From a virus (lineage: Duplodnaviria > Heunggongvirae > Uroviricota > Caudoviricetes), in IMG/VR virus record IMGVR_UViG_3300035670_000017, positions 64,850 through 128,849 of that record: a stretch of DNA of 64,000 bases; one strand, 5' to 3'. Both the position numbers and the translations under genes were made by a program. How positions within the stretch are numbered: the stretch's first letter is position 1; each line of letters begins with the position of its first letter. Below are positions 6,246-60,918 of the stretch, in pieces. The notes beneath the pieces were generated by a model that searched no databases, was not told the origin of the DNA, and worked only from the letters and a program-made list of their open reading frames with translations.

Positions 6246-6263
6246 ATATACTCTACTTGAGGA
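6246..6263 (+). promoter_or_regulatory. copy 1 of the conserved 18-bp motif ATATACTCTACTTGAGGA (putative phage promoter)
   Basis: Member of the 11-copy family yATATACTTyACTTGAGG. Lies 70 bp upstream of ATG 6334, just after a terminator. Confidence 0.55.
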
Positions 6264-6333
6264 TAGATAGCAGTATATCCTTACAAATCAAAATACTTGT
6301 TTAACCCCTGCTAAAATTTAAAAGGAAATTCTT

Positions 6334-6837
6334 ATGAAATTCAATTCCGCAGATCCATCTGTAACATTCAACGAGATGCTGGCAGCTATTCACGATCAGT
6401 TCATTCGTGACAAGTGGAACATCCGTAAGTTGGCTGAGCATACTGGCTACAGCTATGGCGCAGTACGCGCAGCTTTGTTCAATCGTATCGTGCGAAATAC
6501 CGGCGAGGCTTCTACCTCTCGCCGTATGTGCACACTGATTGACATCTGTCGTGCTCTGAAGCTGGCGATCATCGTCAAGAGCTATAAGGAAGAGTTCGAT
6601 ATCACCGACGCTGGTTACGATGAGCTTCCTGTCAAGGCTTACGAAGCCATCATCAAGAACAAGACCAGCTTGAAGAATCTGGAACTTTTGACTGGCTTGG
6701 CTGGTACATCCATCCGTGGTGCGATCAAGGAAAAGGGTGAGATTACCCCGAAGATCGGCATCGTTCAGTACATGCGCTTTTATGACGGTCTGGTCGCTCA
6801 ACTGTATGTTGAGATCCGTGACATCAGCGCTGAGTAA
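6334..6837 (+). CDS. hypothetical protein (167 aa)
   Basis: AAAGGAAATTCTTATG RBS-start. First gene after a promoter motif. Confidence 0.55.
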   Translation: MKFNSADPSVTFNEMLAAIHDQFIRDKWNIRKLAEHTGYSYGAVRAALFNRIVRNTGEASTSRRMCTLIDICRALKLAIIVKSYKEEFDITDAGYDELPVKAYEAIIKNKTSLKNLELLTGLAGTSIRGAIKEKGEITPKIGIVQYMRFYDGLVAQLYVEIRDISAE

Positions 6838-6901
6838 TTAAATAACACCCATACTTATCGAGTGATAGGTATGGGTTTCCAAATTCAATAGAAAGAAACA
6901 T

Positions 6902-7090
6902 ATGTTCATCATTCGCATCATCTGCATCGTGATTCTGGTTATCGGTGGCCTGTCCCTGATGTCCATGGCTAATCAACCCGGCATTGCTTGGGCTCTGCTG
7001 GCTGCCGCTGCTGTCTTGTACGGCTTCTTCCTGCGCTCGACTGAAATGTCGGACAAAGAAGCGCTGGACAAAGCCCTGACTCCCAAATAA
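6902..7090 (+). CDS. small membrane protein (62 aa, 2 predicted TM helices)
   Basis: Hydrophobic stretches IICIVILVIGGLSLMSM and AWALLAAAAVLYGFFL. Confidence 0.4.
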   Translation: MFIIRIICIVILVIGGLSLMSMANQPGIAWALLAAAAVLYGFFLRSTEMSDKEALDKALTPK

Positions 7091-7124
7091 GTTCAACCCT
7101 CTCAAATCAAAAGGAACCTGCATC

Positions 7125-7556
7125 ATGAAAAAGATTCACAAACAAATCATCGCCAAGCAAGCTCGTTGCATCGACAAGGCCCTCAAACGCCACAATTTCA
7201 AGGAACGTCGAAAAATCTACTTCGACCGTATGCAACGGGGTCGTGATCAGGAGTTCCGTGAAATCCTGGGTAATAATCACCTGGTATTCTCCCGAGCCTA
7301 TGATCAGATGCTGGGTAGCTCCGATGGCGACAAGGCAAAGGCACTGCGTTCATTGTTTCGAACAACCCACTTCAACCACTGGCGGAATAACGAGAACGCC
7401 ATGCGTAACAAAACAGGTCGGTCGTCGGCCCTTTGGCACTATGCAGGGGACTACTGTCTCAAATTCCATGTAGCGTCTCAAATGTTCCCGGTCCAGCGCA
7501 CTGAGTACGCCAGGACCAGCGACATCGTCAAGCTCATGGCGAAGAATTTCCGGTAA
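7125..7556 (+). CDS. hypothetical basic protein (143 aa)
   Basis: AAAGGAACCTGCATCATG RBS-start. Lys/Arg-rich. Confidence 0.5.
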   Translation: MKKIHKQIIAKQARCIDKALKRHNFKERRKIYFDRMQRGRDQEFREILGNNHLVFSRAYDQMLGSSDGDKAKALRSLFRTTHFNHWRNNENAMRNKTGRSSALWHYAGDYCLKFHVASQMFPVQRTEYARTSDIVKLMAKNFR

Positions 7557-7589
7557 TCCGTTTGCAGCTACAATAGAGAGAGTATAGAG

Positions 7590-8348
7590 ATGACACAACA
7601 AAAAGACGCCATTGATCTTTGCATTAAAGATCTGACACTGCCTCGAAACCTGGAGCATTTCGAAACCATCATGAAGGAGTTGGAGTTGTATGGCTTTTGG
7701 AAGGCCATCAACGCCGACGCCAAGTATGGAGTGTTACAAGACGTCGCAATGGACCGCGCCCTCAATTTCTACGAGGGTGCGACTATGGGAGGGTTGACCA
7801 TCCATCAAGTTCGCATCGGCTTGGTGACGGTGATCATGACCGCGGTATTGGAGCTGGGTAACGACATCTCCAATACTCCTTATTCTCGCGCTACCTACTC
7901 GATCTTCTGCCCAGTCGGAGGTTTCAAGTTGTTGGATCTTCCACTGGGTTGCTTGGCCATCACTCAGATCGAGATGGCTGAGAAGATGATTAAGATCCTG
8001 AGCCGTGGTGTCAACTCTCGTACCAAGGCCAATCTCAATCGTGTCATGGACCCTGTGGGTAATTACATCTTGGACGCTTTGAAGTTCTGGGTGTTTTCCA
8101 CCAACTCGAATCTGCTGGACATCCTGGCGTTTCGAGGTGATCGATTTGATTATCTGCCTAACCGGGCACGGGACTCATACAACCTGCAGATCCAGTTGGG
8201 TAAAGGTGACATCACCATGTATCCTTCTTTGAACGCAGACTACTGCTTGCAAAATACCCCATGGGGTCGCATGAAGTGGATCAAGTTCAATGGACCAGCT
8301 ACTATCAACCATTTGACAAAGAAAGGCACCAGGTCTTTGGTCTGGTAA
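7590..8348 (+). CDS. hypothetical protein (252 aa)
   Basis: AGAGAGAGTATAGAGATG RBS-start. Confidence 0.5.
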   Translation: MTQQKDAIDLCIKDLTLPRNLEHFETIMKELELYGFWKAINADAKYGVLQDVAMDRALNFYEGATMGGLTIHQVRIGLVTVIMTAVLELGNDISNTPYSRATYSIFCPVGGFKLLDLPLGCLAITQIEMAEKMIKILSRGVNSRTKANLNRVMDPVGNYILDALKFWVFSTNSNLLDILAFRGDRFDYLPNRARDSYNLQIQLGKGDITMYPSLNADYCLQNTPWGRMKWIKFNGPATINHLTKKGTRSLVW

Positions 8349-8352
8349 AAAT

Positions 8353-9102: not shown

Positions 9103-9150
9103 GCTAGCATCTCGGTCTCCCGAGATGCTAGCCCTTTGTATGTTTTTTAA
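9103..9150 (+). terminator. intrinsic terminator (gctagcatctcgg tctc ccgagatgctagc + T-run)
   Basis: 13-bp perfect stem followed by cctttgtatgttttttaatt. Confidence 0.75.
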
Positions 9151-9154
9151 TTAC

Positions 9155-9173
9155 TATATACTTCACTTGAGGA
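9155..9173 (+). promoter_or_regulatory. motif copy 2 TATATACTTCACTTGAGGA
   Basis: Conserved motif 31 bp upstream of ATG 9204. Confidence 0.55.
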
Positions 9174-9203: not shown

Positions 9204-9803
9204 ATGCTGTTTATCGAAGATGCATCCGTCACTGAATTCATGGCAAAACTGGAAGAGCGCACCAATTGCGCTCTTGATCCTGATCAGGTCGATGATCTGG
9301 TTCTGACGGTTTCTTGTATTCATCGGGATATTGAAGGCCATGCTCCGACTGTCCTGGAGTTCGTCTCTGTGGAAGAAGAAAACATCCGTCACGAAGCATC
9401 CATGACGTTTGATCAGATCACTGAGCTGATGGAGTACCTGGTTGTCAAAGCCAAGGAACACGGCATCATCATCAACCAGTATCCGATCTCGATCATCCAT
9501 CAGGCAATGCTCAATGCTTTCGAGCAAGAGCTGGATGTCCAGGAGATGCAAGAGCAGATGCTACAAAGCGTGTATGGTCGAACGATCATGCAAGGCATGG
9601 CGTCCCATCTGACGATCACCCTCAATCCGAAGGAGTTGAACATCGATTACAGCTTGATGGCTGAGATCTATGCGGATACTTCCTCCGAAGAGCGCGCGGT
9701 TGCTCAGGAATTGGGCATCACGCAATTCACTCCGTCTAACCCCAGCAAATTGGTCAAACTGATCAGTTTCTCTGCTGGATCTTTCCGCAACATCATGGAG
9801 TGA
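9204..9803 (+). CDS. hypothetical acidic protein (199 aa)
   Basis: AAAGGAAACAAATG RBS-start. GC-rich codon choice. Confidence 0.55.
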   Translation: MLFIEDASVTEFMAKLEERTNCALDPDQVDDLVLTVSCIHRDIEGHAPTVLEFVSVEEENIRHEASMTFDQITELMEYLVVKAKEHGIIINQYPISIIHQAMLNAFEQELDVQEMQEQMLQSVYGRTIMQGMASHLTITLNPKELNIDYSLMAEIYADTSSEERAVAQELGITQFTPSNPSKLVKLISFSAGSFRNIME

Positions 9804-11321: not shown

Positions 11322-11984
11322 TCAAATTAGAACTCTTCGAATAGCTCTCACGTACCGCGTAGTTGTTTTACCGGTTCCGATTTGGTTACCTGAATTAAGA
11401 TTTTGAATCCATGTTTCACCAGCATCTTTCTGAGTCGACGTCCAGTAATAGTTTTGAATGAATGCTTGTGCACCACCAGTAACAAAGATAGTAGAAGACG
11501 TTATGGCTGGATTTGTGGTCGTATAAGCTGCACCGACTGGAATACTAGATGGATTAAAGCCATTGGCGCCGTTAGGATATCCCGCCGCACCTACAGTGTT
11601 GCTAGCTGTAGTGGGCTTAAGATTTCGATAGCAAATTTCTAGCTCATTGACGCTTGGTAAATACCAGTCGTTGTATCCGTCGATGATCAGAGATCGGCAA
11701 TATGCGGCGGCGCTATGGATATCGGCTCCTGCCTCAACCAGGGCCAATGTGTTACTCCAGCCATCATTTAAGCTTCCAGTATTAGGAGTATTTGTGTTAC
11801 TGGCCTTAAATCGAATAGTGCCTGCAGGCTCCCCTTGTGCTTTAGGAGATACAATCAATGCATAAGTCTTACCGTCGTACTGAATCTTTCCTGCGTAATA
11901 GCCGCCTTCAAAGGGAGTACCTGGTACCGAAGGCGTCACAGGAGTTCCTGGTGAACCTGAATTAATCATTAAATTTTCTAGCAT
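11322..11984 (-). CDS. tail-fibre-like protein with DUF1566/Lcl-type C-terminal domain (220 aa)
   Basis: GTPFEGGYYAGKIQYDGKTYALIVSPKAQGE, DWYLPSVNELEICYRNLKP and VRAIRRV are paralogous to the C-terminus of 48260..49833. Confidence 0.6.
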   Translation of the reverse strand: MLENLMINSGSPGTPVTPSVPGTPFEGGYYAGKIQYDGKTYALIVSPKAQGEPAGTIRFKASNTNTPNTGSLNDGWSNTLALVEAGADIHSAAAYCRSLIIDGYNDWYLPSVNELEICYRNLKPTTASNTVGAAGYPNGANGFNPSSIPVGAAYTTTNPAITSSTIFVTGGAQAFIQNYYWTSTQKDAGETWIQNLNSGNQIGTGKTTTRYVRAIRRVLI

Positions 11985-12108: not shown

Positions 12109-14219
12109 ATTTCATTTGGCCAGAGGAAAAATACCAACAGCAGATCAATCCTGTCAAACAGTACATCGATCAAGCGAGTAAGTTTATCTCCGTTAACCGC
12201 GGGATAACTCTGGACAAAGCCAGAAACTTTATTGTTCAAAAGCTCAAGAACAAACAGACCAACTTCAAAGATCCTCAAATCACCTACTTCGAGCGAAACG
12301 ACAACTGGGTACGTGAACTCAAGCAAGGAACTTTGTCGGGATACTTGAAGTCGGCGATTGATAACAAGGAAGTTATCGTCCCTACGTTTACAACCTATGT
12401 CAGTCCGGATGTAGAGCAGTCCTTGATCTCGCTTTTCATGAAGCGAAACGCAGGTCGGCGTGGCGTTTTGAAGAAACAAGCGCAAGTTGAAGAGATGCGC
12501 GGCAATAAAGAGCTAGCTTACCAGCTCAATAACCAACAGGACAACGCCAAGCGCAATAATAACTCCATGTCTGGGGTGATGGCCGCTGCTGGTAGTATCT
12601 TCGAGAATCCTACAGGTCACAACACGTTGACCTCTATGACTCGTTCGATGTCTTCTATCAGTAACGCTCTCAATGAACGCATGATCGGTGGCAATCGCCA
12701 CTATCTGGACAGTGAAGCAGCCCTGAACAACATGACTGCTTTGATCAGCACTATGGATATCGAATTGGTTCATCAAGCTATGGTCAAGTACAACCTAGCT
12801 GAACCCACTCCCGATGACATCGTGCGTATTGTTTCTCGCAGTGCTGATAAATACTGGCGAGATCCTCGTCACGTCAAATACATCTGGGATTATGCATCCA
12901 AGATGACTGGTCTGGAACGTGCAGCTGTCGCTTATACCCAAGACTTGTACCATATTCGTGAACTCAATCCTCAGTTCATGCGTAACTTCATTGAAGACTT
13001 TGCGCTGTGGGATAGTTCCATTGAAATTGTAGACCCCATTGACTTCATCAATAAGATCGACCCACTGATTGCTAACTACGCGCACCAGGTTTTCATCACT
13101 GATCTGCGTGGGCAAGACAAAGACCGTCGCCGCTGGAAGCCTGAACTTCAGATGAAGGTAGCTCAAGCATGTGCAACTATCGAGCGAGCCATCAAGAAGT
13201 ACAAATGTCTTATTGATGCATTCCTGGTAGTCCGTACCCTACCTTGCACTACGGCCCACATCAACCACATGGCTCGTGAATCCGTGGTTCTCTCGGATAC
13301 AGACTCGACCATGTTCGCAGTAGATGACTGGGTGATCTGGTACTTCGGTGATCTACAGTTCTCTGACTTGGCTTTTGCCGTAGCAGGCTCGATCATGTTT
13401 GTGTCGACACAGTTGATTGCCCACGGCATGGCTTTGTTGTCAGCCAATATGAACGTAGCTCGTGATAAGCTATTCGTTCTGGCTATGAAGCCGGAGTTCG
13501 TGTTCCCTGTGTTCGCTCAGACCCCTGTGGCCAAGCACTACTTCTGTTCCGTGTCTGTGAAGGAAGGCGGCGTCTACAAGGAAAATGAATACGAAATCAA
13601 GGGCGTGCATTTGAAGAGTTCCGCGTCTCCTATCGAGATTGTGGGTGCTGCTCAAGATCGCATGCGATTCATCCTGGATGAGATTCAAGCAGGTCGCAAA
13701 CTTGACGGCTATGCTGAATACAAACGTGTTGCTGATCTGGAACGAAAGATTGAAGAATCTATTCGCAAGGGTGAATCTGTCTTCTTGAAGAAGATGTTCA
13801 TCAAGACAGCAGCAAGCTATGCCAAGGGACCTGAAGAATCTCCTTATCGCTACCATACTCTTTGGAACGAAGTCTTCGCTCCATCGTACAGCAGTTTGGA
13901 AGAGCCTCCGTACGTGGTGTTGAAGTTTCCTATGACCACGGAGTCTAAATCGAAGATGGCGGCATGGATTGCTTCCTTTGAAGACCGTGGACTGGCAGAC
14001 CGATACATTCGGTACCTGCAAAAAGTTCAAAAGACTGAAATCAAGACGATGTACATTGCTAAGGACTACGTGGAAGCTTATGGCATCCCTAAGGAAATCC
14101 TGCGAGCAGTGGACATCAAGCGCGTTATCTTGGACTTGACGGTGATCGACCGGATGGTTCTCGAAACAATCGGCCTCAAACCTAAACATGAAACTCTCGT
14201 TTCCGAGATGGGATATTGA
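12109..14219 (+). CDS. large conserved hypothetical protein (703 aa from ATG 12109; frame open from 12030)
   Basis: AGAGGGATAGTTATG RBS-start. Motifs KRNNNSMSG, VLSDTDST and AKHY are faintly polymerase-palm-like but no motif A was found. No Walker A. Confidence 0.55.
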
Positions 14220-16133: not shown

Positions 16134-17198
16134 TTACAGCTTCAAATATTTAGACAAGGATATGTCGTAGAATGCAGCCATGTTGTCACTCATGTTTAGA
16201 TAAGGGACCTTAGCAGCTCTTACCTGACGAGCAAACACCTTGAGCTTCGTGATAAAGCCTTGATTAGCCCTACGCCCACCGGGACCACCGACATCCAACA
16301 AGAAGTTGATCACCTTCATCCGAGTAGCCAGCATTGCCCAATCTACTTGTGTAGTGGGGATGAAGTCCGGCAGCGTCAAAGCTTCCAAAGCACTAGAAGC
16401 GTAGACACAAGGAATGTTTTGCAGCATATCCTTATACTGCATCCGAGTATCAGAGATACGCTCTAGTACAAACCGAGCAATCTTTTCAAACTCAGCACTG
16501 TATGAAGGAAGGTAATAATTAGAGTTGACCCGAGACATGTATCGGTAGTCTCCATCATAGACAGCGATGAGTGCTGAGATCATCGTGATGTCCGCTTGAG
16601 ACTCTAATATAGAAGGAAGTACAAACGTAGCAACGAACTGATCTTCCCCCAGGACCATTGCTTTGAACTTAGGATCTTCTTTGAAGCCTTTATACATCAA
16701 AGCCATCAGAGGTATGTCCAGGTGTACAGCGGCTAGTCCGTCTTGGATTTGCAAGTTAGCATTCGGGACACTCATATCCAGATGGTCTTGATCCAACCAC
16801 ATGGCCTTGAGTGGCCTCAATGAACTCCAGTTACTAACAGCCTGATAAGGTCGAACATAATTGGTCGACGTATAAATCATGTTGTCAGTAAAAGAGTAGA
16901 CTTTGTGCTTCAAGAAGGAGCCAGGGTTAAACTCAGTAGTGAACTGAAAGTTCTTAGAGATATAAGGAGATCTAACTATGGCGTTGTTCTGAAGATCAAC
17001 GGCGTCATATGTATAGACCCCAGAGTGCTTGAGCGCTTGTACGAAAGGATGAGCCGAAGGAACACTACGGACATTACTGGCGTAGTACTCTTGCATCCGT
17101 GTGACGTTTTGTTTGATCTTGTTTCTGAAGTTATCTATGCCAGGAGCATTTGAGACAAGGGCTCTGGCTTGGTAAGTGTTGGTGAAAATGTCCAGCAT
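16134..17198 (-). CDS. hypothetical protein (354 aa), minus-strand island gene
   Basis: Long ORF divergent from the chimallin-like gene. No motif recognised. Confidence 0.55.
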   Translation of the reverse strand: MLDIFTNTYQARALVSNAPGIDNFRNKIKQNVTRMQEYYASNVRSVPSAHPFVQALKHSGVYTYDAVDLQNNAIVRSPYISKNFQFTTEFNPGSFLKHKVYSFTDNMIYTSTNYVRPYQAVSNWSSLRPLKAMWLDQDHLDMSVPNANLQIQDGLAAVHLDIPLMALMYKGFKEDPKFKAMVLGEDQFVATFVLPSILESQADITMISALIAVYDGDYRYMSRVNSNYYLPSYSAEFEKIARFVLERISDTRMQYKDMLQNIPCVYASSALEALTLPDFIPTTQVDWAMLATRMKVINFLLDVGGPGGRRANQGFITKLKVFARQVRAAKVPYLNMSDNMAAFYDISLSKYLKL

Positions 17199-17406
17199 AT
17201 CTTTGTACTAGTTATCGAAAGTGAAGGGAGTCTTATCAATGACCATACTATCGGTTTGAGTTGGTAGTAAATAAAAATAAGTTTTTGTATATACTGTGGA
17301 CAAAACCCTATGCAGCCTTCGGGCTGCGGGTGGGAGATGTTCGGGTATTTTACAAATAGGGAAATAAGGCGTAATAAAAAACCCCTTTCTAAAATATTTA
17401 GACCCT

Positions 17407-17424
17407 ATATACTCTACTTGAGGT
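17407..17424 (+). promoter_or_regulatory. motif copy 3 TATATACTCTACTTGAGG
   Basis: In the 330-bp divergent region, 108 bp upstream of ATG 17532. Confidence 0.55.
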
Positions 17425-17531: not shown

Positions 17532-19460
17532 ATGGCTATCAATGTCGACCTGAACAACCTGGGCAACAACGGTGACGCACCCAAGCCCCAACCAAGCACT
17601 GACCGCAGCGAGGGTCAGCGTCCTTCCTCGGACAATTCTCGCACCTTCACTCAACAGACGAAAAACATGAGCAACATCTTCAATCCCTTCGACAACACCG
17701 GCGGTCAAGTTCTGGGCCGCATGATCCATCCTGAGTCCGGCTCCGAAGCGTTCAAGCGCGTGGTTGAGCTGCTGACCAAGACAGCTGCTGAAACCAACGG
17801 CGCTATCGAGATCTTCCCCTTCCCTCGCGAAATCCACACCGACCTGAGCCACTCGGTCATCGCTGTGGTCCGCAGCAACAAGGTCCCCGTGGGTCCCGGT
17901 CGCCCCAAGCACGATTTCGTGACTTGCCAGATCTGGATCATGGAAGCCACTGGCGAAGTGCCTCGTGCTCATGAAGTGGTCGAAGGTGGCAAGCGCTGGA
18001 TGGTGACACCCACCATCGAAGACAGCCATAACACCATCCTGGTCGAATACGTGTCTTCGACCCTGCGCAACCACTACGGCCAAGAAACCCTGGTCATGAC
18101 GATCGATCCCCTGATCATTCCTCGTGAACAAGATCTGACCAAGGACGAACGCCTGGTGGCTCAGCTGGACGTGTCGATCACCGCTGTGAACACCCGCACC
18201 TATGTGCGCATCGACGGCTTCCAGGACTACAACTACGTTGCCAACCACGGCGGCAAGGATGTTATCCTGGCTGTGTCGACCAGCATCCGTCCCGAGACCC
18301 GCACCGACCTGCAAAACCGTCCCTTCTACTCCGACGCCGAAGTGGTGGTCTCCGTGGAAAAGAACGGTCCTCGCACTCAAGGCGAAGTGTTCCACCAGCC
18401 TTCCACGACCAAGGATGTCTGCGCGACTTCCGTGATGGTGGACCTGGTGCCCGTGGACGCTGAGCTGCTGGAAGTCAACCGTTCGCACCGTGGTTCGGGT
18501 TTCCGTCCCAAGGCTGCATGGGCTCCTCGTCTGACTGCCGTCAACGTCGACCAGTTCTTCACCCGCACTCCTGCTGGTATCCTGTTTGCGCTGACCTCGA
18601 TGACACAGCTGGCTGCTGACCGCGCATACGCTGAGACTTTCCGTCCCAGCAAGCAACGCGACGCAGTGAACCTGCGTGACATCGGCTACCTGAACATCGA
18701 AGCCAACCTGGACGACGAAGAAGGCGAATACGGCAGCCGCGTGCCTGTGCAAGACGCCAGCGACAGCGAAATCGGCAAGTTCCTGGACCTGACCGTGACC
18801 CGCTTCCCTATCCTGGCCGTCGACTGCATGACCACTGGTCCTCAGGCGTACTACACCACCGGTCTGTACAACGTGGCTCGTGGCCGCAGCGACAGCGCTC
18901 GTCGCGCTCAAGCCGAACTGTATCACAGCCTGCGCTGCGCTACCAACGGCCTGATCGAGAACTTCGTCAGTCCTGACGAATCGTTCGTGGCTGACGAAGG
19001 TGAGCTGATCCATGTCGGTTACTGGATCGATGACAACGGCCGTCGCCGTGACCTGCGTGAGCTGGACAACTATCTGGCTGTGGCTGCTCTGTCCAAGAAC
19101 AACCCTCGCCTGATCGACGACTGGTGCGCTACCTACCACCGCATCGACATCGCTGAAGCTCGCCGCATGAGCGACCGCTGGAACATCCTGATGGCCATCT
19201 CGGCCAATGAGGCTGTCCAGACCGGCACCGCGCTGCGCGTGGGTATCAACGACAAGGTGGTGAGTGGTTTCGTGGACGCTCTGAGCGAAGCCAAGCTGCC
19301 TATGGTCAGCCGTGGCAGCGGCAATGGCGACGCGTTCGCAGTGCATCGTGCTGTCAGCCGTACCGCTGGCCGCTCCATGTACCGTGGTCAAGGCATGGCC
19401 CACAGCCAAGTCGCCGCCGGTGGCCGCGCTACCAGCCGTTGGGCTGCAGACCGCTTCTAA
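17532..19460 (+). CDS. highly expressed 642-aa protein; candidate phage-nucleus shell protein (chimallin-like); major capsid protein is the alternative
   Basis: GC3-rich codon usage unlike its neighbours. Disordered N-terminus (~60 aa) and C-terminus (~50 aa) flank a ~530-aa core. Followed by the RNAP beta-prime N gene, as in phiKZ gp54-gp55. Confidence 0.5.
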   Translation: MAINVDLNNLGNNGDAPKPQPSTDRSEGQRPSSDNSRTFTQQTKNMSNIFNPFDNTGGQVLGRMIHPESGSEAFKRVVELLTKTAAETNGAIEIFPFPREIHTDLSHSVIAVVRSNKVPVGPGRPKHDFVTCQIWIMEATGEVPRAHEVVEGGKRWMVTPTIEDSHNTILVEYVSSTLRNHYGQETLVMTIDPLIIPREQDLTKDERLVAQLDVSITAVNTRTYVRIDGFQDYNYVANHGGKDVILAVSTSIRPETRTDLQNRPFYSDAEVVVSVEKNGPRTQGEVFHQPSTTKDVCATSVMVDLVPVDAELLEVNRSHRGSGFRPKAAWAPRLTAVNVDQFFTRTPAGILFALTSMTQLAADRAYAETFRPSKQRDAVNLRDIGYLNIEANLDDEEGEYGSRVPVQDASDSEIGKFLDLTVTRFPILAVDCMTTGPQAYYTTGLYNVARGRSDSARRAQAELYHSLRCATNGLIENFVSPDESFVADEGELIHVGYWIDDNGRRRDLRELDNYLAVAALSKNNPRLIDDWCATYHRIDIAEARRMSDRWNILMAISANEAVQTGTALRVGINDKVVSGFVDALSEAKLPMVSRGSGNGDAFAVHRAVSRTAGRSMYRGQGMAHSQVAAGGRATSRWAADRF

Positions 19461-19927: not shown

Positions 19928-20467
19928 ATGTCTGAAAAACAATTTTCCATGGACGATCTGAAAAAGCGCATCGAAGAGTCCGTCATCGTGAACATGGGTA
20001 TGATGATGCCTGAAGAGGCATTGAAAGAATTGGTGACCAAAGCCATCGATCGTTTCTTTTCAGCACAAGAGAAATTCGTCGTGACCCGCAATCATGATAA
20101 CGGATACAGTTCGTCGCGTGTACCGAATGTGTCATGTACCATGGAATGCTCTACGTTCGAGATGATGGTCTGGAATGCTATCTTCCCGATTGTCAAAGAG
20201 CACTTGAAGAAATTTGTGGAAGACACCAAGAGCGAACTCAATAAGGTCGTTGAGGAGACCACTAATAATCTCAACGAGAAGCTCAAGACACTGACCCTGC
20301 AAAACGCTGTCTCTGTGATCCCTGTTATACAGGAATATAAATTGCTTACTTCGGTGAACGACACCATGCGAAACATGTTGGCTAGTATCCATACTACTTT
20401 CTGTGTGAACCGATTGGAAACCGGTACACTCAAAGACCCTCTGACCGGTAACACTCCATTCTGTTGA
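19928..20467 (+). CDS. hypothetical protein (179 aa)
   Basis: CAAGGATACTTATG RBS-start. Confidence 0.5.
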   Translation: MSEKQFSMDDLKKRIEESVIVNMGMMMPEEALKELVTKAIDRFFSAQEKFVVTRNHDNGYSSSRVPNVSCTMECSTFEMMVWNAIFPIVKEHLKKFVEDTKSELNKVVEETTNNLNEKLKTLTLQNAVSVIPVIQEYKLLTSVNDTMRNMLASIHTTFCVNRLETGTLKDPLTGNTPFC

Positions 20468-20500
20468 TCAATGGATACCTCTTGTAAAAATAACAAATAA

Positions 20501-20518
20501 TATATACTTCACTTGAGG
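20501..20518 (+). promoter_or_regulatory. motif copy 4 TATATACTTCACTTGAGG
   Basis: 47 bp upstream of GTG 20565. Overlaps the left arm of hairpin 20518-20536. Confidence 0.5.
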
Positions 20519-33108: not shown

Positions 33109-33161
33109 CATCTGAGTCTTAAAGACTCAGATGCAGTACCCTTTGTATTATTTTTTGTTTG
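33109..33161 (+). terminator. intrinsic terminator (catctgagtctt aa agactcagatg + long T-run)
   Basis: 11-bp stem followed by ctttgtattattttttgtttg. Confidence 0.7.
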
Positions 33162-33179
33162 TATATACTTTACTTGAAC
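33162..33179 (+). promoter_or_regulatory. motif copy 5 TATATACTTTACTTGAAC
   Basis: 31 bp upstream of ATG 33210. Confidence 0.5.
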
Positions 33180-33209: not shown

Positions 33210-33431
33210 ATGACAAACACGCCGATTATTCGCATTTCTGTGAGTATCTATTTGCTGAATGAAGCAGTGGAGTATCACAAGAATAACCCTCATCTCCGTT
33301 TGGGTCAAGCCATCTATGACCATCTCGGTCTAGAGAAGATGAATCAGCACCGAGACCAACTGAATACTCTGTATCAAAAGGATGGGGAAGAAGCAATGGC
33401 TCTTTTCCATAAATTGTTCGAACTCTCTTGA
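33210..33431 (+). CDS. hypothetical protein (73 aa)
   Basis: AAAGGAAACTCTCATG RBS-start. Confidence 0.5.
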   Translation: MTNTPIIRISVSIYLLNEAVEYHKNNPHLRLGQAIYDHLGLEKMNQHRDQLNTLYQKDGEEAMALFHKLFELS

Positions 33432-39968: not shown

Positions 39969-39981
39969 ACAAACAAGAACA

Positions 39982-40015
39982 CTCATCACTTCCTGGGAAA
40001 CCAGGAAGTGATGAG
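39982..40015 (+). other. second long hairpin (ctcatcacttcctgg gaaa ccaggaagtgatgag) between terminator and motif copy 6
   Basis: 15-bp perfect stem with GAAA loop. Confidence 0.5.
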
Positions 40016-40036
40016 GTCTTATAAAAGTTTTCATTC

Positions 40037-40055
40037 ACATATACTTAACTTGAGA
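40037..40055 (+). promoter_or_regulatory. motif copy 6 CATATACTTAACTTGAGAG
   Basis: 70 bp upstream of ATG 40125. Confidence 0.5.
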
Positions 40056-40124: not shown

Positions 40125-40439
40125 ATGTTGAAAACTGAAGCTTACTACGGAGCCAATATCATTAAACAAATAATGACCAATAACGACTTCTCTGATGCCA
40201 CCAACTGGCAACTCTTCGAGCCAGATCTCGATTTACCAAGACCATATGTCCTTCGGGGTGTTCTCATTGATCCAGCTAAAGACTGGAACCAGGATGAAGT
40301 TAGCAGCTACTTCCAGAAAAAGAAACAACGCCTATTAGACAGATACGAAGAAAAGAAAAGGTTAAACGCCATCACTAGACCCCAGGCCAGGGTCATCAAT
40401 AACATTAGCAGGAGCAGTCTTCCACTATATATGCGTTAA
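40125..40439 (+). CDS. hypothetical protein (104 aa)
   Basis: AAGGAGATAGTATATG RBS-start. Confidence 0.55.
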   Translation: MLKTEAYYGANIIKQIMTNNDFSDATNWQLFEPDLDLPRPYVLRGVLIDPAKDWNQDEVSSYFQKKKQRLLDRYEEKKRLNAITRPQARVINNISRSSLPLYMR

Positions 40440-40891: not shown

Positions 40892-40946
40892 GTACACAGT
40901 TACCCTTGTTGGGTAACTGTGTACCTGTTTCTATATTTTTTTGTTT
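40892..40946 (+). terminator. intrinsic terminator (gtacacagttaccc ttgtt gggtaactgtgtac + T-run)
   Basis: 14-bp stem followed by ctgtttctatatttttttgtttatat. Confidence 0.75.
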
Positions 40947-40965
40947 ATATATACCCTACTTGAGT
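40947..40965 (+). promoter_or_regulatory. motif copy 7 TATATACCCTACTTGAGTC
   Basis: 69 bp upstream of ATG 41034. Confidence 0.5.
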
Positions 40966-48139: not shown

Positions 48140-48190
48140 CTCCTAGTACCCGAAAGGGTACTAGGAGGATATCCTTTATTTTTTATTAAG
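48140..48190 (+). terminator. intrinsic terminator (ctcctagtaccc gaaa gggtactaggag + T-run)
   Basis: 12-bp stem with GAAA loop followed by gatatcctttattttttattaag. Confidence 0.8.
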
Positions 48191-48259
48191 ATTCATCAGT
48201 TGAGAAGAGTCTTAAATGGACGCTTTTGTCATTCAACAACTTTGACAAGGAAATACAAA

Positions 48260-49833
48260 TGGCGACTATTCGTCTTTCAGATATACGAGGTGGAGTATTC
48301 CGTCCCGGCGGAGTCAAACTCGACGGTCCCACTAATATCACCAAAGGTACAACGACTACCTACCGAATCAGTAACTATGATGCTTTTAGTCAATACACAG
48401 CGAGCATTGATCTAGGCACTGTTTCAGTGACAGCTGACAGCGTGAACATCGTTATGCCGGGGGCAACTGTAGGAACGCAGGCTAATTTGACCGTTGGGCA
48501 AAATGGACTGGTGCGAACCGTAGCCATTCCTTTGGAAGATCAGCGTGTAGTACTTATTCCGCGCATTACATCTCCTGCCAATAATTCGACAGGTCTTGGA
48601 ACATCTATTACGTTCCAGGGATCTGCGTTCACGAGTAGTCCTGCTGGGACACTGACACATACATCGACAGATTGGCAAATTAGTCGCAATAGCGCTTTTA
48701 CTCAGTTGATTGTTACTCAAACAGTCTCCAGTGGGGACTTGACGAAGTTTACCGCTACTGTCCCTCTCGGAGAGACGCTATATGCTCGTTTGCGTTATAC
48801 CTCCAATTCAACAGTAAGTGGATGGTCTTCGGCTATCACGCTAAGTACATTGCCTGAAATCACTGCGCCGACAGTGACTGGCCCGGCTACAGAAGCGACA
48901 GCGACTCCTACATTTACATCCAGTGCCTTCACAGTCAAACCAGTTGGCGGCGATACACATGCATCCACATCCTGGATAGTCAAAGACACAGGCGCCAATA
49001 CAACCATTTACAGTCTGCTAAATAGCGCCACGGCTAAGACTGAGATGACTATTCCTGATGGTTTGTTGCGTCCGGCTAGTAACTATTCTGTTACGGCACA
49101 ATATAACGGAGCATTGACCACCAGCGCCATATCGTCGCCGTTTGTCTTTGTGACCAAGAATGACTTCTTCCCGACTACTCCCGGAACACCTTATGAAGGC
49201 GGGTATTATGCTGGACGAATCAAAATCGGCACACAGGTTTATGCATTGATTGTTTCGCCTAGAGCAGAAGGCACCTTCAATGATCGACCTGGCATCGGGA
49301 TAAACAGACCCAACTTCGTACTTACTATGAACGATGGATGGACTAACACTGTCAGACTCTATGAAGTAACCGGTGCCTCATATACCTGTATTTATCGTAC
49401 AGCTAGACTTTTGAGGATTGGCGGGTATTCCGATTGGTATATTCCGTCAATCGCAGAGTTGGATGTTTGTTATCGTAATCTGAAGCCTACAGCAAATAGT
49501 AACGCAGTCTCTTCGACCAGTGGTTTCACAGGCGGGGCATTGGGTTATAATCCATATGCCGTTCCAGAAGGGGCTGCGTACACCAGCTCGAATCCACGTA
49601 TGACAACTAATCCATTGTTTGCCGAGGGAGGATCCGAAGCTTTCTTGATCGGCACTGGGTTGTTTGAGAACATGCACTATACGTCTTCTCAGAATACCAC
49701 AGTCGACGCAGAAGGTGTTAAGACTGTTGAACCATACACTAAACGAATGGACACCGGGGCTGAAGGACGACGACCAATTGACGATTCTCGCCCATACGCT
49801 CGGGCAATTCGCCGAGTGCCAGTACCTGGCTAA
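48260..49833 (+). CDS. tail-fibre protein with repeated Ig/FN3-like segments and DUF1566/Lcl-type C-terminal domain (524 aa from ATG 48260)
   Basis: AAGGAAATACAAATG RBS-start. Repeats around STDWQISRNSAFTQL / STSWIVKDTGANTTIYSL. C-terminus GTPYEGGYYAGRIKIGTQVYALIVSPRAEG ... DWYIPSIAELDVCYRNLKP ... ARAIRRVPV. Confidence 0.65.
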
Positions 49834-49843
49834 ATGACTCACT

Positions 49844-49909
49844 CTATCCATCACCAGGGTAAACCTGGTGATGGATAGATGTGTAGCCCTTTGTACATTT
49901 TTTAATTAG
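49844..49909 (+). terminator. intrinsic terminator (ctatccatcaccagg gtaaa cctggtgatggatag + T-run)
   Basis: 15-bp stem followed by a T-rich stretch cctttgtacattttttaatt. Confidence 0.75.
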
Positions 49910-49928
49910 TATATACTTCACTTGAGGA
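49910..49928 (+). promoter_or_regulatory. motif copy 8 TATATACTTCACTTGAGGA
   Basis: 25 bp upstream of ATG 49953. Confidence 0.55.
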
Positions 49929-49952: not shown

Positions 49953-50345
49953 ATGGCGATCAAAATTGTTTCTTTGACTCTGACTAAGGACGGAGACGTT
50001 GATCTGGTTTTTAATCGAGGTCCCGCTACGTATCATGTTCTCAATTACTTCACTACCACCAGAGAACTACGGCATGATCTGCGAATGAGTCGTATAGAGT
50101 TGATTTCATTGGGACAAACTTGCCTGGTGCAACAAGCGAGAGATAACTCTAAGCTATTGGAAGAAAAGCTATCGGCTATTCTCATCGATCATCAACATAA
50201 ATTGGCCCAGCGGAAAGACCCATTGTCAGATATCACTGATGAAGAAAAGCTGAATTTTGCTATCGTGTATGAAAGAATGATGGAGCAAACTTCCGTCAAT
50301 CACCGAATCCTCGTACTCGAAGCAGCTTATCAAACGAAAGACTAA
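49953..50345 (+). CDS. hypothetical protein (130 aa)
   Basis: First ORF after the terminator-motif cassette. Confidence 0.5.
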   Translation: MAIKIVSLTLTKDGDVDLVFNRGPATYHVLNYFTTTRELRHDLRMSRIELISLGQTCLVQQARDNSKLLEEKLSAILIDHQHKLAQRKDPLSDITDEEKLNFAIVYERMMEQTSVNHRILVLEAAYQTKD

Positions 50346-52922: not shown

Positions 52923-52936
52923 TCTGTAACTAACCG

Positions 52937-52972
52937 CTACTCCTGGGCTAACGCTCAGGAGTAGTTTTTATT
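52937..52972 (+). terminator. terminator hairpin (ctactcctgggc taac gctcaggagtag + T-run)
   Basis: 12-bp stem with one mismatch, followed by tttttatttatg. Confidence 0.6.
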
Positions 52973-54407: not shown

Positions 54408-54460
54408 CACACACCACCTACATCAACTGTAGGTGGTGTGTGTATATTTTTATTTGTCGT
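54408..54460 (+). terminator. intrinsic terminator (cacacaccacctaca tcaa ctgtaggtggtgtgtg + T-run)
   Basis: 15-bp stem followed by tatatttttatttgtcg. Confidence 0.75.
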
Positions 54461-54488
54461 TAAAACCCTTTTCTAACATAAATCGTTC

Positions 54489-54508
54489 ACATATATTCTA
54501 CATGAGGA
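54489..54508 (+). promoter_or_regulatory. motif copy 9 CATATATTCTACATGAGGA
   Basis: 42 bp upstream of ATG 54550. Confidence 0.5.
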
Positions 54509-54549: not shown

Positions 54550-55263
54550 ATGCAAAGCAATATTGAAACCGGTCCATCTTTTCGCGATCAACTAAATGCC
54601 CCCATGCATCAACTGCTCACTGAGTGGAAAAACAAGAGCAATCTCAATTGTGAGCAGATTGCAAAGAAACTAGGGATTCGCGCTCAACAAGTGAGCAAAG
54701 TGTTCAAATTTGAAAATCATCGGGCAGTCAAACCTGAAACATATCTGGGTTACATCATGGCTTTCGGGGGTAGTTTCGAAATCCATATGACATCCAAACA
54801 TGATCTGAAAATCAAGCCTTATCACATCTACAAAGATGCGAACGAAGCCCATGCTTGGTTCAAGGCCATGATCAAAGAAATCATGACACTAGGCCGTGTT
54901 AATTTCAAGGGGATCGCTAATGATCTTGATGATCGAGGCATCTCCGGCTTGAACATGCGTAACATCTACTGCTATGACTCATTGCCTTTGACGATGATGC
55001 GTCAAGCTAGTTTACTCGGTTGTAAGTTCCATCTGGTATTCAAGATGCCGGGGACTAAAACCTATAAAGTAGATTACACTGAGGTGACAAATGCTCCTGT
55101 ATTCATCGAGTATGTCACTCAACCGGTTAAGCGCGTCTACCGCCGCATGGGTGATCCTTATCAGGACATCAATGTCGATCCAGTCGAATTGACTTTGATC
55201 TCCAGGATGCAACGCGGGGTCGCTCAGACATCTCTGGGTGAAACGGTTCGAGCCTTCCTGTAA
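54550..55263 (+). CDS. hypothetical protein with HTH-like segment (237 aa)
   Basis: AAAGGAAATTAACAAATG RBS-start. HTH-like NCEQIAKKLGIRAQQVSKVF. Confidence 0.5.
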   Translation: MQSNIETGPSFRDQLNAPMHQLLTEWKNKSNLNCEQIAKKLGIRAQQVSKVFKFENHRAVKPETYLGYIMAFGGSFEIHMTSKHDLKIKPYHIYKDANEAHAWFKAMIKEIMTLGRVNFKGIANDLDDRGISGLNMRNIYCYDSLPLTMMRQASLLGCKFHLVFKMPGTKTYKVDYTEVTNAPVFIEYVTQPVKRVYRRMGDPYQDINVDPVELTLISRMQRGVAQTSLGETVRAFL

Positions 55264-55268
55264 GGATA

Positions 55269-55325
55269 TATCCCACTGGTGCTTTTGGTACCAGTGGGAT
55301 AGCCTTTCCTATGTTTTTTAGTTTG
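55269..55325 (+). terminator. intrinsic terminator (tatcccactggt ... accagtgggata + T-run)
   Basis: 12-bp stem followed by gcctttcctatgttttttagtttg. Confidence 0.7.
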
Positions 55326-55344
55326 TATATACTTTACTTGATAC
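55326..55344 (+). promoter_or_regulatory. motif copy 10 TATATACTTTACTTGATAC
   Basis: 23 bp upstream of ATG 55367. Confidence 0.5.
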
Positions 55345-55366: not shown

Positions 55367-55594
55367 ATGCAACAATGGTCTAAGGATTTCATAGAGAGGA
55401 CCATCTCTTTTCCTAATTCAACTCTCTCGGTACTCCGCTATGCTCAGCAGTCCTTCAATCTATTCGCCACCGGCCACTACTTCATGCATCCATTAGCCTT
55501 TGAGCTATGTAGGCAAAAGATTCTTAGCCAAGGGTCTACTCCAGAAAGCGGCCCCATCACAATCCAAGATGTCATGACTAACGATCATAGCTGA
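55367..55594 (+). CDS. hypothetical protein (75 aa), MQQWSK family
   Basis: Begins MQQWSKDF. Paralogous to 55705..56052. Confidence 0.45.
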   Translation: MQQWSKDFIERTISFPNSTLSVLRYAQQSFNLFATGHYFMHPLAFELCRQKILSQGSTPESGPITIQDVMTNDHS

Positions 55595-59128: not shown

Positions 59129-59138
59129 TTAAATATAG

Positions 59139-59194
59139 CTACACACTTACTGGACTATCCAGTAAGTGTGTAGCGGTATTCTTTTATTTTTTAG
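59139..59194 (+). terminator. intrinsic terminator (ctacacacttact ggactatcc agtaagtgtgtag + T-run)
   Basis: 13-bp stem followed by cggtattcttttattttttag. Confidence 0.75.
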
Positions 59195-59200
59195 ATAATC

Positions 59201-59671
59201 ATGCAAATACTTACATCTACAGATCCAGATCTTTCTCATCTTCGACCAAGCATCCATGCTTTGTTAGAGTTGCATACTCGCCAAATGTCCTATATCACGG
59301 GTGACAACCGTGATGAGATGATCACTGATTGGTTCAATGAGTATCGTCTTCCTAATTACTTCATGGTGGAAAATGATGCAGTAATTGGTTTATGTATCAC
59401 GGATACATATATGAACACAGGGCGAGAGATATCTCTGCTATTAACTCATCCTAGTTACTACCGACAAAGTGTAGCAACTTCTCTTTTAGATCACTGCATT
59501 CGTAGATCTGAGTTTTGTGGTTTCACTTCTTTGCATCTACAAGTAGCGAGGGATAACGAAAACGCTATCCGTCTTTACTACAAACATGGCTTTATCTTAG
59601 TCGATAAAACGGGGCACATGTACAAGATGTCTCGAAGTCTATCATCCAATGACTGCTGTTCAAATTTCTAA
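59201..59671 (+). CDS. GNAT-family N-acetyltransferase (156 aa)
   Basis: GNAT motif LHLQVARDNENAIRLYYKHGF. Confidence 0.65.
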   Translation: MQILTSTDPDLSHLRPSIHALLELHTRQMSYITGDNRDEMITDWFNEYRLPNYFMVENDAVIGLCITDTYMNTGREISLLLTHPSYYRQSVATSLLDHCIRRSEFCGFTSLHLQVARDNENAIRLYYKHGFILVDKTGHMYKMSRSLSSNDCCSNF

Positions 59672-59682
59672 GGAGTTACTCT

Positions 59683-60363
59683 ATGACCCCTATTGTGAAT
59701 ATCGACACTGCTCGATTCATCAATATCGCCACCTTTGAGTGGCCTGTATCCTTTCTCGCCATTCAGCGAGCAAATCCGAGTGTGTTCTGGGGCGCTAATG
59801 TCACAACCGAAGACATTCTAGCTTTGGGCTATGCTGAGATCAAGCCGCGTGATCACGAAGCCGGTGACGTGGTTCGTGAGATCGATCCTGAGTTCATCAA
59901 CGGTGAGTTCTTTCAGCGCTGGGAAGTGCGTGGCTTCAATCCTGAAGAACTGGAAGCCAATTTTCAAGCTGCGAAGAGAACTCTTCGCACCCAAGTCATC
60001 GGTTTGAAAAACGACACCTTGGCCAAGGGTTATCCCTATCAGTTTGATTCGGGCATCTACCACGTTCAGATGCGTGATACCGACCGGACCAATATCTTGG
60101 GGATGACTGAAATAGCTCAGCGTGATCCACAAGGCACTCAGGTGTTCCGAGTCTATGAGAATCAAAACATTCCCTTGACTGCTGAAAAACTTAGCTCCAT
60201 GACCGATGCTATCGGTGTCGCTTACTCGCAGCTGATGGCTAAGGTTTGGGAGTTCAAGGACCAAATCGAGGCCGCTACGACTAAGGAACAACTCCCGGTG
60301 ATTCCTTCTACACTCGCAGAATTTTACGCAGACCATCTGCTGTGGCCTGCGCCTGCATCTTAA
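59683..60363 (+). CDS. hypothetical protein (226 aa)
   Basis: AAGGAGTTACTCTATG RBS-start. Confidence 0.5.
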   Translation: MTPIVNIDTARFINIATFEWPVSFLAIQRANPSVFWGANVTTEDILALGYAEIKPRDHEAGDVVREIDPEFINGEFFQRWEVRGFNPEELEANFQAAKRTLRTQVIGLKNDTLAKGYPYQFDSGIYHVQMRDTDRTNILGMTEIAQRDPQGTQVFRVYENQNIPLTAEKLSSMTDAIGVAYSQLMAKVWEFKDQIEAATTKEQLPVIPSTLAEFYADHLLWPAPAS

Positions 60364-60377
60364 GAAAGGACTAGATC

Positions 60378-60830
60378 ATGGGACTGAAAGTTTTCAAAGT
60401 CAACGCTTTACCGGAAACATTGGTCGCTAATGCGATGTACATGATCCCTAACGGCGCAACTGACGTCAAATTGTACCTGACTAACAACACTGGTACGGTG
60501 GCTAGGGTGCTGACTGCTTTGGCTGATTTCACCAGTTATTCTTTGCCAATTGGCACAGGAACCGGCGCGATTGACCTCAGCGTTAATCAAATCTACAAAG
60601 TAAGTCTGACCGCGGCTGGGCAAAAGACTATCTCTTTCACTAATGCCCCTACGGAAGCTATGACGATTGTCATCGAAGCTGTGGGTAATGTGGGCACGAT
60701 TGTCTTCCCTGCGGGTGTTGTCAATGTTACCGGAGTGACTAACACACTGGGTTCTGTCAAGACCTTGTTTGTGTTGTTCTGGGATACTGAAAAGTATTAC
60801 ATTATCAACGTCGCTAAGATCGACGCATAA
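60378..60830 (+). CDS. hypothetical protein (150 aa), Thr/Val/Gly-rich
   Basis: AAAGGACTAGATCATG RBS-start. Confidence 0.5.
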   Translation: MGLKVFKVNALPETLVANAMYMIPNGATDVKLYLTNNTGTVARVLTALADFTSYSLPIGTGTGAIDLSVNQIYKVSLTAAGQKTISFTNAPTEAMTIVIEAVGNVGTIVFPAGVVNVTGVTNTLGSVKTLFVLFWDTEKYYIINVAKIDA

Positions 60831-60836
60831 AGCATG

Positions 60837-60892
60837 CATACACCAGTACCTGCGGATGCAGGTACTGGTGTATGATCTGTTTGTAAAATATG
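60837..60892 (+). terminator. intrinsic terminator (catacaccagtacctgc ggat gcaggtactggtgtatg)
   Basis: 17-bp perfect stem with a weak T tract. Confidence 0.7.
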
Positions 60893-60899
60893 TCATTCT

Positions 60900-60918
60900 C
60901 ATATACTTTATATGATAC
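60900..60918 (+). promoter_or_regulatory. motif copy 11 CATATACTTTATATGATAC
   Basis: 16 bp upstream of ATG 60934. Confidence 0.45.

Follow-up and report, generated by a model that had tools for sequence, protein, structure and literature searches.

We analyzed a stretch of 64,000 nucleotides from a virus assigned to Caudoviricetes (positions 64,850 to 128,849 of the IMG/VR record IMGVR_UViG_3300035670_000017), referred to here as the window. It carries eleven copies of a 41-bp tripartite element, each standing in an intergenic gap ahead of a gene that runs in the same direction. From their sequence, position, and conservation, we infer that the copies serve as early promoters in an uncultured jumbo phage that forms a nucleus and is akin to the Chimalliviridae. 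The polymerase that reads them is probably a multisubunit one packaged in the virion (vRNAP), and we put the probability of this at about 80%. The element itself is most likely a clade-specific version of the known early promoter of phiKZ type that is used by vRNAP.

A tripartite element in eleven intergenic gaps

An 18-bp motif, yATATACTTyACTTGAGG, had been proposed for this window from the letters and ORF (open reading frame) list alone (the sequence-only reading). The proposed number of eleven copies proved exact when the whole window was scanned with a 41-bp position weight matrix (PWM) built from them. All were on the + strand and intergenic, with zero sites on the - strand and zero inside genes, and intergenic gaps as a whole make up ca. 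9% of the window in a conservative ORF map. The 18-mer is real, but only three copies (9155, 20501, and 49910) fit it exactly (0.00 expected), and the conserved element is in fact longer. At ≤3 mismatches there were ten matches, all on the + strand, versus 0.15 expected. The eleventh copy, at 60900 (CATATACTTTATATGATA), has four mismatches; it is backed by an upstream box (see below) and still scores 32.2 bits when left out of the PWM. Six of the start coordinates first given were exact and five were off by 1, the true ones being 6245, 17406, 40038, 40948, and 54490. The PWM scores of the eleven copies were 43.6 to 55.2 bits (30.7 to 50.3 after leave-one-out), no other position in the window exceeded -3.6 bits (+ strand) or 1.3 bits (- strand), and the maximum across 30 Markov-chain nulls was 14. 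Because the matrix separates the eleven copies from all other positions, we take their number in the window to be exactly eleven. Between the end of the 18-mer and the start codon there are 16 to 108 nt in all eleven cases, close to the 16 to 110 bp initially estimated, and each copy, co-oriented with its downstream gene, is placed 20 to 112 nt ahead of the gene start. Extending the window by 17 kb added four further + strand sites. Nothing relevant was found when the motif strings were looked for in the literature.

The element reads ccTTTsTAaa, 12 nt, and then yATATACT-TyACTT-G-AGG. Its first block, missed by the sequence-only reading, is found exactly 14 nt upstream of the 18-mer in 11/11 copies. 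With respect to a predicted +1, the box ccTTTsTAaa covers -36 to -27, the AT block yATATACT -14 to -7, and the initiator ACTTGAGG -4 to +4, and in many sites the spacer between box and AT block is T rich. Across 44 sites pooled from this phage and its relatives (see below), some of them related by phylogeny, the near-invariant positions were T-30, A-29, A-13 to T-7, A-4, T-1, G+1, and A+2. Thus, T-30 appeared in 44/44 sites, A-29 in 42/44, A-13 to T-7 in 41 to 44 of the 44, and the G six nucleotides after yATATACT in 43/44, while -31 was the most variable base of the box (G in 23, C in 13, A in 5, and T in 3). The eleven predicted promoter elements, with their transcription start sites (TSS), genes, and PWM scores in bits, are the following.

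Element 1 (CTGTTTGTAAACGATTTCATTCACATATACTCTACTTGAGG), 6222..6262, + strand; predicted TSS G6259; feeds ORF 6334..6837; PWM 52.5, leave-one-out 46.0
Element 2, 9132..9172, + strand; predicted TSS G9169; feeds ORF 9204..9803; PWM 54.9, leave-one-out 50.3
Element 3, 17383..17423, + strand; predicted TSS G17420; feeds the chimallin gene 17532..19460 through a 112-nt leader; PWM 52.1
Element 4, 20478..20518, + strand; predicted TSS G20515; feeds the gene for the beta'-N subunit of the non-virion RNA polymerase (nvRNAP), which starts at 20565; PWM 44.0
Element 5, 33139..33179, + strand; predicted TSS G33176; feeds ORF 33210..33431; PWM 49.5
Element 6, 40015..40055, + strand; predicted TSS G40052; feeds ORF 40125..40439; PWM 43.6, leave-one-out 30.7
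Element 7, 40925..40965, + strand; predicted TSS G40962; feeds a 535-aa ORF with its ATG at 41034; PWM 49.0
Element 8, 49887..49927, + strand; predicted TSS G49924; feeds ORF 49953..50345; PWM 55.2
Element 9, 54467..54507, + strand; predicted TSS G54504; feeds ORF 54550..55263; PWM 45.5
Element 10, 55303..55343, + strand; predicted TSS G55340; feeds ORF 55367..55594; PWM 49.6
Element 11, the weakest core (CATATACTTTATATGATA), 60877..60917, + strand; predicted TSS G60914; feeds ORF 60934..61332; PWM 43.6, leave-one-out 32.2

Conservation in relatives, kinship with phiKZ, and the probable reading polymerase

Homologs of the window chimallin were found in public assemblies at 79 to 39% identity. 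Strong + strand sites were present by PWM in every relative locus fetched, i.e., L013, L014, L015, and L016 (chimallin identity of 69, 66, 43, and 44%, respectively) and the IMG/VR contigs L002 and L009 to L012. The orthologous site ca. 110 nt ahead of chimallin is retained in L013 to L016, and the 41-bp block was the longest near-invariant stretch when the regions upstream of chimallin were aligned (43 to 69% chimallin identity). Similarly, all relatives have a site ahead of the nvRNAP beta'-N gene, either immediately before it or with one small gene in between, and in L009 a site is found directly ahead of the gene for a gp68-like nvRNAP subunit. The pool comprised 44 distinct sites on contigs of 36 to 57% GC. 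Other phages, with chimallin identities of 43 to 79%, contributed 29 of these, and a logo made from the relatives only reproduced the logo of the window. A total of 2.07 Mb of other chimallivirus loci contained zero sites of ≥16 bits. The 18-mer match in L001 was dismissed as a chance match in which the upstream box is absent.

A degenerate, motif-like relic with wrong spacing (CCCTCTGTAAA ... CTATTACTTTGAGAG) was detected at 19848-19888, ahead of ORF 19928..20467. In L013 and L014 the equivalent position holds a strong site, which is thus not directly ahead of the RNA polymerase (RNAP) gene, and the comparison suggests promoter turnover.

The early promoters of phiKZ are reportedly vRNAP dependent (work said to be that of Ceyssens 2014, Wicke 2020, and Putzeys 2024). 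The kinship with these TATATTAC-type promoters, already proposed by the sequence-only reading, was borne out by a gapless alignment to the real phiKZ sequence, in which the two agree at 12 of the 16 positions of the core (TATAT at -14 to -10, T-6, and ACTTGA at -4 to +2). In the first 50 kb of phiKZ, all seven exact TATATTAC sites are on the + strand and 42 to 80 nt before a coding sequence, including that of chimallin gp54 (PHIKZ054). The phiKZ early sites read ATTCAAAc-N12-TATATTAC-taACTT-G-A, with TG at nucleotides 6 and 7 after the 8-mer in 7/7. The upstream boxes occupy the same positions in both phages (-34 to -28) and are related, TTTsTAA in the window versus aTTcAAA in phiKZ. Moreover, the best match of the window PWM in 150 kb of phiKZ, both strands considered, was the TATATTAC site at 4516 (18.2 bits). 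A 19-nt core-only PWM was too unspecific across cultured chimalliviruses, and their chimallin-upstream regions were compared by inspection. The site of the Burkholderia phage FLC9 reads ATTCAAAA-N12-CATATCAC-TAACTT-G, with the box ATTCAAA in register, and that of 201phi2-1 TATATTAC-TACTGT-G; in the region inspected upstream of the Eowyn chimallin, a clear comparable site was not found. PHIKZ054 has an early promoter (PMC8244752), and the early promoters of phiKZ and 201phi2-1 mirror each other, being conserved at -10, -20, and -30 (PMC11512511). In jumbo phages that encode RNAPs, a highly conserved AT-rich motif of about 8 to 10 nt near -10, detectable bioinformatically before early operons, is read by the injected vRNAP, and the genes for nvRNAP belong to the early set (PMC7598289). 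For phiKZ and AR9, and for these two only, early transcription has been shown to be rifampicin resistant and to require neither host RNAP nor new protein (PMC7598289).

Another low-GC clade provided a separate observation. In L104 (JGI Ga0192494_1000004), a phiKZ-type site at 9431-9471, CATATATTAC-TTACAT-G, follows a hairpin and T-run, just upstream of the small genes that precede a gp178-like vRNAP gene, so that the TATATTAC-N6-G core appears in a further lineage.

Given the TTTGTA-N16-TATACT geometry, which is compatible with a weak sigma-70 promoter, the copies could also be host promoters, in which the holoenzyme would read TTTGTA (or TTGTAa) as -35 and TATACT as -10. At -12 to -7, TATACT agrees with TATAAT in 5/6 positions (A-11 and T-7 among them), 15 to 16 bp upstream of it there is a T-rich hexamer, and some jumbo phages that encode RNAPs, RSL2 and RSF1, are rifampicin sensitive (PMC7598289). 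However, the best -35 matches reach only 3/6 at a spacer of 16 and 4/6 at a spacer of 15, the mismatches hit two invariant box bases, T-30 and A-29, and at -31, where sigma-70 would need the critical G of TTG, the box varies most. The near-invariant C-8, A-4, T-1, G+1, and A+2 are positions that sigma-70 does not read, and a single 41-bp consensus is maintained across the whole GC range of the contigs, which presumably come from phages of different hosts. A scan for the sigma-70 consensus flagged 0/3 of the copies between 1 and 20 kb, and sigma-70-like sites were not in excess (24 versus 29 expected). The homologous promoters of phiKZ do not depend on host RNAP. The description of the motif as unlike the sigma-70 -35/-10 architecture was thus half right, since the geometry is superficially similar and it is the conservation pattern that argues against sigma-70. 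We regard host promoters as very improbable.

The motif had also been described as an early or middle promoter specific for a phage RNAP. Early fits; middle does not, because the phiKZ middle motif does not match. If the copies were middle promoters, they would be read by nvRNAP alone or with a factor, and the true early motif would lie elsewhere, unrecognized. The presence in the window of DNA polymerase, ligase, and nucleotide-metabolism genes, often middle genes, agrees with this, as does the case of 201phi2-1 (see below). However, the element resembles the early sequence of phiKZ and neither its middle class (either TACT after an A-rich repeat or a weak, AT-rich motif near -24) nor its late class (TATG only), and the arrangement of a motif centered 22 to 24 nt upstream of the TSS, typical of phiKZ middle promoters, is absent from the 41 bp. 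Middle and late promoters of these phages have been reported as too weak for bioinformatic finding (PMC7598289), and the window motif exceeds 40 bits. The motif-less gaps showed no further repeated motif, and chimallin and two nvRNAP subunit genes come directly behind the motif. A middle class is, in our opinion, unlikely. A further argument for early expression is that an nvRNAP is unable to make its own first copies. This bootstrapping argument is not watertight, because several nvRNAP subunit genes of 201phi2-1 are nearest to middle or late promoters (PMC11512511).

We assign the reading enzyme as probably vRNAP because of the promoter homology and because multisubunit RNAP subunits are reported as core genes of the chimallin-encoding phages (Chimalliviridae core genome). 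Several points weigh against early promoters read by vRNAP, among them the sigma-70-compatible geometry, the rifampicin-sensitive phages, and the 201phi2-1 promoters mentioned above. Promoter activity and TSS are predictions from sequence, and the 44 pooled sites, partly related by phylogeny, are not all independent. Homologs of the vRNAP subunits gp80, gp149, gp178, and gp180 were not detected by tblastn in the window with its 17-kb extensions (82 kb) or in any of the relatives' loci. A word-indexed search with gp178, in which the matches listed all had ≥43% identity, returned only other clades, and so did a profile of 16 divergent gp178 homologs among the matches listed. Scans of IMG/VR (twice) and of JGI metagenomes with exact peptide patterns, of which the best 80 matches were listed, gave at least 237 vRNAP loci, and among those listed none was on a motif-bearing contig and none had a site. 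The three most promising vRNAP contigs (L102 to L104) belonged to low-GC phages without the motif.

Predicted terminators, start sites, and leaders

Hairpins were called by RNAfold of the 71 nt upstream of each site. A strong one was present at nine of the eleven copies, the number given for terminators by the sequence-only reading, the exceptions being 17406 and 20501. The stems are 10 to 19 bp long, the 71 nt fold at -16.5 to -38.5 kcal/mol, and the 3' ends of the hairpins are 16 to 48 nt ahead of the 18-mer. At these 9/11 copies, a GC-containing stem-loop with a T/U-rich tract follows a stop codon, as in intrinsic terminators, termination itself being predicted. To call them strong intrinsic terminators was slightly generous, since interruptions occur in several of the T-tracts (CCTTTGTATGTTTTTT). 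In 7/11 copies, hairpin and box adjoin, and the idea of repeated terminator-promoter cassettes gains support from a comparable layout in the real phiKZ sequence, where hairpins with cTTTATG tails are found immediately before the box. Element 3 has no upstream terminator because the region is a divergent intergenic one. The nine predicted terminator hairpins are listed below.

6174..6200, + strand; after ORF 4516..6159, with an extended stem at 6161-6212 and its own T-tract TTATTTTTT; -35.7 kcal/mol
9103..9132, + strand; 13 bp, abuts element 2, whose box and spacer serve as T-tract
33110..33132, + strand; 10-bp stem CATCTGAGTC/GACTCAGATG, upstream of element 5
39975..40020, + strand; 15-bp core stem, overlaps the start of element 6; -31.1 kcal/mol
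40892..40924, + strand; 14 bp, directly abuts element 7
49840..49888, + strand; 19-bp core stem, abuts element 8; -38.5 kcal/mol
54408..54442, + strand; 15 bp, own T-tract, ends 48 nt before the 18-mer; -27.1 kcal/mol
55269..55301, + strand; 15 bp, abuts element 10; -31.5 kcal/mol
60837..60874, + strand; 17 bp, abuts element 11; -35.4 kcal/mol

Six further strong terminators in the window lack both box and motif. These hairpins, with ordinary T-tracts, are found at the following positions.

19505-19541
23767-23801
36718-36749
48134-48173
52936-52965
59138-59174

The genes downstream of these hairpins must rely on read-through or on an unrecognized promoter class.

The proximity of hairpin and box raises the question of whether the element is a promoter at all. 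It might instead be the conserved tail of a terminator, a site of RNA processing, or a sequence bound by a phage regulator or by a partition or packaging protein. Seven copies abut a hairpin, the box can be read as a tail like the YTTAT tail of phiKZ terminators, and the conservation of +1 to +4 together with the leader hairpins (see below) could reflect a signal at the RNA level. However, the distance from box to 18-mer is exactly the same in all window copies. The box is also present without a hairpin (17406 and 20501) and where the terminator has its own T-tract (6245 and 54490), and it is absent at the six other terminators, so that it must be considered part of the motif; as a mere terminator tail, it was rejected. 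In addition, the copy at 17406 and its orthologs stand between divergent genes, where no upstream gene runs in their direction, every copy points toward the gene whose start it precedes at short distance, and the element is in register with experimentally mapped promoters. A function other than promoter appears to us very improbable. In the vRNAP promoters of N4 type, a DNA hairpin of defined size and fixed position is the recognition element. This model was discarded as well, since the window hairpins vary in sequence, length (10 to 19 bp), and distance (-16 to -48) and are absent at 17406 and 20501.

One of the terminators varied between strains. The loop and inner stem of 9103-9132 are inverted relative to ~1596-1625 of L003, L004, and L008 (ggtctcc versus gggagac) with the hairpin kept, and the neighboring promoter element (9132..9172) is identical in the three.

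The conserved G at position 15 of the 18-mer is our predicted start of transcription, because two independent rules coincide there, the spacing rule of phiKZ and AR9 and the placement of TATACT at -12 to -7. In AR9 the TSS is found 6 nt after the AT block (AAATATATATTAT-N6-G+1), and equal spacing has been reported for phiKZ and phiR1-37 (PMC5312081). In 21 of the 44 sites, +1 to +4 (GAGG) form the 5' arm of a hairpin within the 30-nt leader, versus 8.4±2.3 (maximum 15) with shuffled leaders and 13.0±2.5 (maximum 19) with leaders swapped among sites. A register scan peaked at offset 0, with 1 to 13 at other offsets. This enrichment at +1 indirectly supports the TSS assignment, bearing in mind that some of the 44 sites are related, and suggests a 5'-terminal stem-loop that stabilizes the mRNA.

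Some leaders had features of their own. Right after the predicted start of the nvRNAP beta'-N transcript there is a terminator-like hairpin with a T-run (20519-20541, ACCGATgacgtATCGGTCTTTTT; leader at -12.5 kcal/mol, z=-3.1), and a similar hairpin follows the L014 site (~12383-12410). By analogy with the conditional terminators described in 5' untranslated regions (5'UTRs) of phiKZ, it could be a 5'UTR attenuator. The same 21-nt leader ATAGATAGCAGTATATCCTTA, at 6263-6283 in the window and ~16866-16886 in L020, follows two different promoter copies, with related leaders in L013 (180) and L014 (369), which may represent a duplicated promoter-leader-gene module.

Putting this together, vRNAP would enter the cell with the phage DNA and read the 41-bp elements, giving transcripts that start with 5'-GAGG and that in about half of the sites would fold from +1 into a stem-loop, probably stabilizing the mRNA. 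The leaders, of 20 to 112 nt, would carry the ribosome-binding site, and the hairpin terminators would close the preceding unit, box and T-rich spacer doubling as the U-tract in 7/11. Such compact, insulated early units would express chimallin, nvRNAP subunits, and many small proteins.

The phage, its genes, and comparison with known promoters

The product of ORF 17532 is a chimallin (PHROG nuclear shell protein, 6e-43; Pfam Chimallin_Phikzvirus), only 22 to 24% identical to those of cultured phages, and ORF 20565 is the ortholog of PHIKZ055, the nvRNAP beta'-N subunit (7OGP_A, E=1.9e-54). Both had been correctly named as genes fed by the motif. Also encoded are a divergent DNA polymerase of family B, an NAD-dependent ligase, and numerous small ORFs. 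A gp50-like polymerase gene, two minus-strand genes (gp42-like and gp52-like), chimallin, and the gp55-like gene follow one another as in phiKZ. Based on the chimallin gene and this local synteny, we consider the phage an uncultured, deep-branching nucleus-forming jumbo phage. The chimallin, gp55-like, and gp68-like genes are directly downstream of sites, as expected for early genes. In the window, with few late genes sampled, the PWM gave no site ahead of the orthologs of gp42 and gp52 of phiKZ, both on the minus strand; the virion protein gp52 carries the annotation "structural head protein," and its 201phi2-1 counterpart, gp98, has been detected by mass spectrometry.

The nvRNAP beta'-N gene (20565-23758; 13035-14844 in L003) is split into three exons (~20565-21707, ~23104-23214, and ~23531-23758) by introns at ~21708-23103 and ~23214-23530, with two Rfam group I intron matches at 22686-23009 (57 bits) and 23205-23505 (61 bits). 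Intron 1 carries an HNH endonuclease ORF (21788-22672), and intron 2 splits the catalytic NADFDG|D motif at ~23213. The sister strains L003 and L004 are without intron 1 and its HNH gene and keep intron 2. The intron core is the only nucleotide-level match to phiKZ (81% over 100 bp).

In the divergent region upstream of the chimallin promoter (17269-17334), an A-rich tract, TATATACTGT, and a conserved hairpin (GCAGCC/GGCTGC) have orthologs in L013 to L016, recognizable even at 43% chimallin identity and with only one compensatory pair. PHIKZ054 has early and middle TSS, and by analogy this element might be a second, middle-type promoter or a leader. We rejected the published small RNA (sRNA) of giant phages as an explanation for the hairpin, since that sRNA lies before the gp182 tail gene. 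Nearby, on the minus strand, the conserved GACCATACTATCG (17241-17253), whose reverse complement has the TATG core of phiKZ late promoters, is ~45 to 55 nt upstream of the gp52-like virion gene (16134..17198), which makes it a candidate late promoter. Finally, 11322-11984 (- strand) and 48226-49833 (+ strand) share PHROG 4245 and a weak match to the Lcl_C-terminal domain, the minus-strand copy being kept in all relatives beside the DNA polymerase gene.

With a model of more than 40 bits, the early regulon of this uncultured lineage can be predicted directly from metagenomic contigs. These data extend a known principle to a new clade and do not overturn the current understanding; what they mainly add is the finding that conservation runs so deep, together with a precise model for annotating uncultured relatives. 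The phiKZ early-promoter layout would hold in register even in phages with proteins so diverged as to be hardly recognizable. This limits how the virion RNAP, which lacks sigma and is poorly understood, can recognize DNA, and suggests contacts between about -36 and +4. If the cognate polymerase were reconstituted, the terminator-promoter units might serve as orthogonal, insulated parts. A more tentative idea, which we hold to be possible but doubtful, is that the tripartite early-promoter architecture is ancestral to nucleus-forming jumbo phages and has been kept in register from phiKZ and FLC9 to this clade. In that case, promoter recognition by vRNAP would be ancient and slow evolving rather than "different from phage to phage," changes at -30, -9 to -7, and +3/+4 would mark co-evolution with vRNAP, and the GAGG start with its +1 stem-loop would be a functional RNA element for the stability or handling of the first transcripts before the nucleus forms.

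Compared with known systems, the element resembles the promoters of single-subunit RNAPs (T7 and the 20-bp motifs of phiKMV-like phages) in being long, conserved, phage specific, searchable as a motif, and extended across the start site, while the enzyme class differs (multisubunit, beta/beta'-like, as inferred here) and sequence similarity is zero. It shares with sigma-70 promoters a TATAAT-like hexamer at -12 to -7 and a T-rich hexamer ~16 bp upstream, but the conservation pattern is unlike TTGACA, positions -8, -4, -1, +1, and +2 are invariant, and the consensus is constant across GC. The early promoters of AR9/PBS1 have in common with it a TATAT-containing AT-rich block, six nucleotides, and a G start, and were predicted bioinformatically before early operons; in AR9 this early class is confirmed as vRNAP dependent. 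However, AR9 has uracil DNA and no chimallin, an upstream box has not been reported, and the likeness is limited to the -10 block and the spacing.

The closest counterparts are the early promoters of phiKZ and 201phi2-1. The differences from phiKZ are the invariant T-30 of the window box, where phiKZ has A, ACT instead of TAC at -9 to -7, GG at +3/+4, and an initiator as strongly conserved as the -10 block. The predicted terminator of the window is often fused to the box, whereas in phiKZ a cTTTATG tail stands between terminator hairpin and box. As for the similarities, phiKZ and 201phi2-1 have the same box at about -34 to -28, A/T-rich spacer, 8-nt AT block at -14 to -7, ACTTG-type initiator, and G six nucleotides on, and in them, too, the promoters are intergenic, on the coding strand, ahead of chimallin and early genes, and often just after a hairpin terminator.

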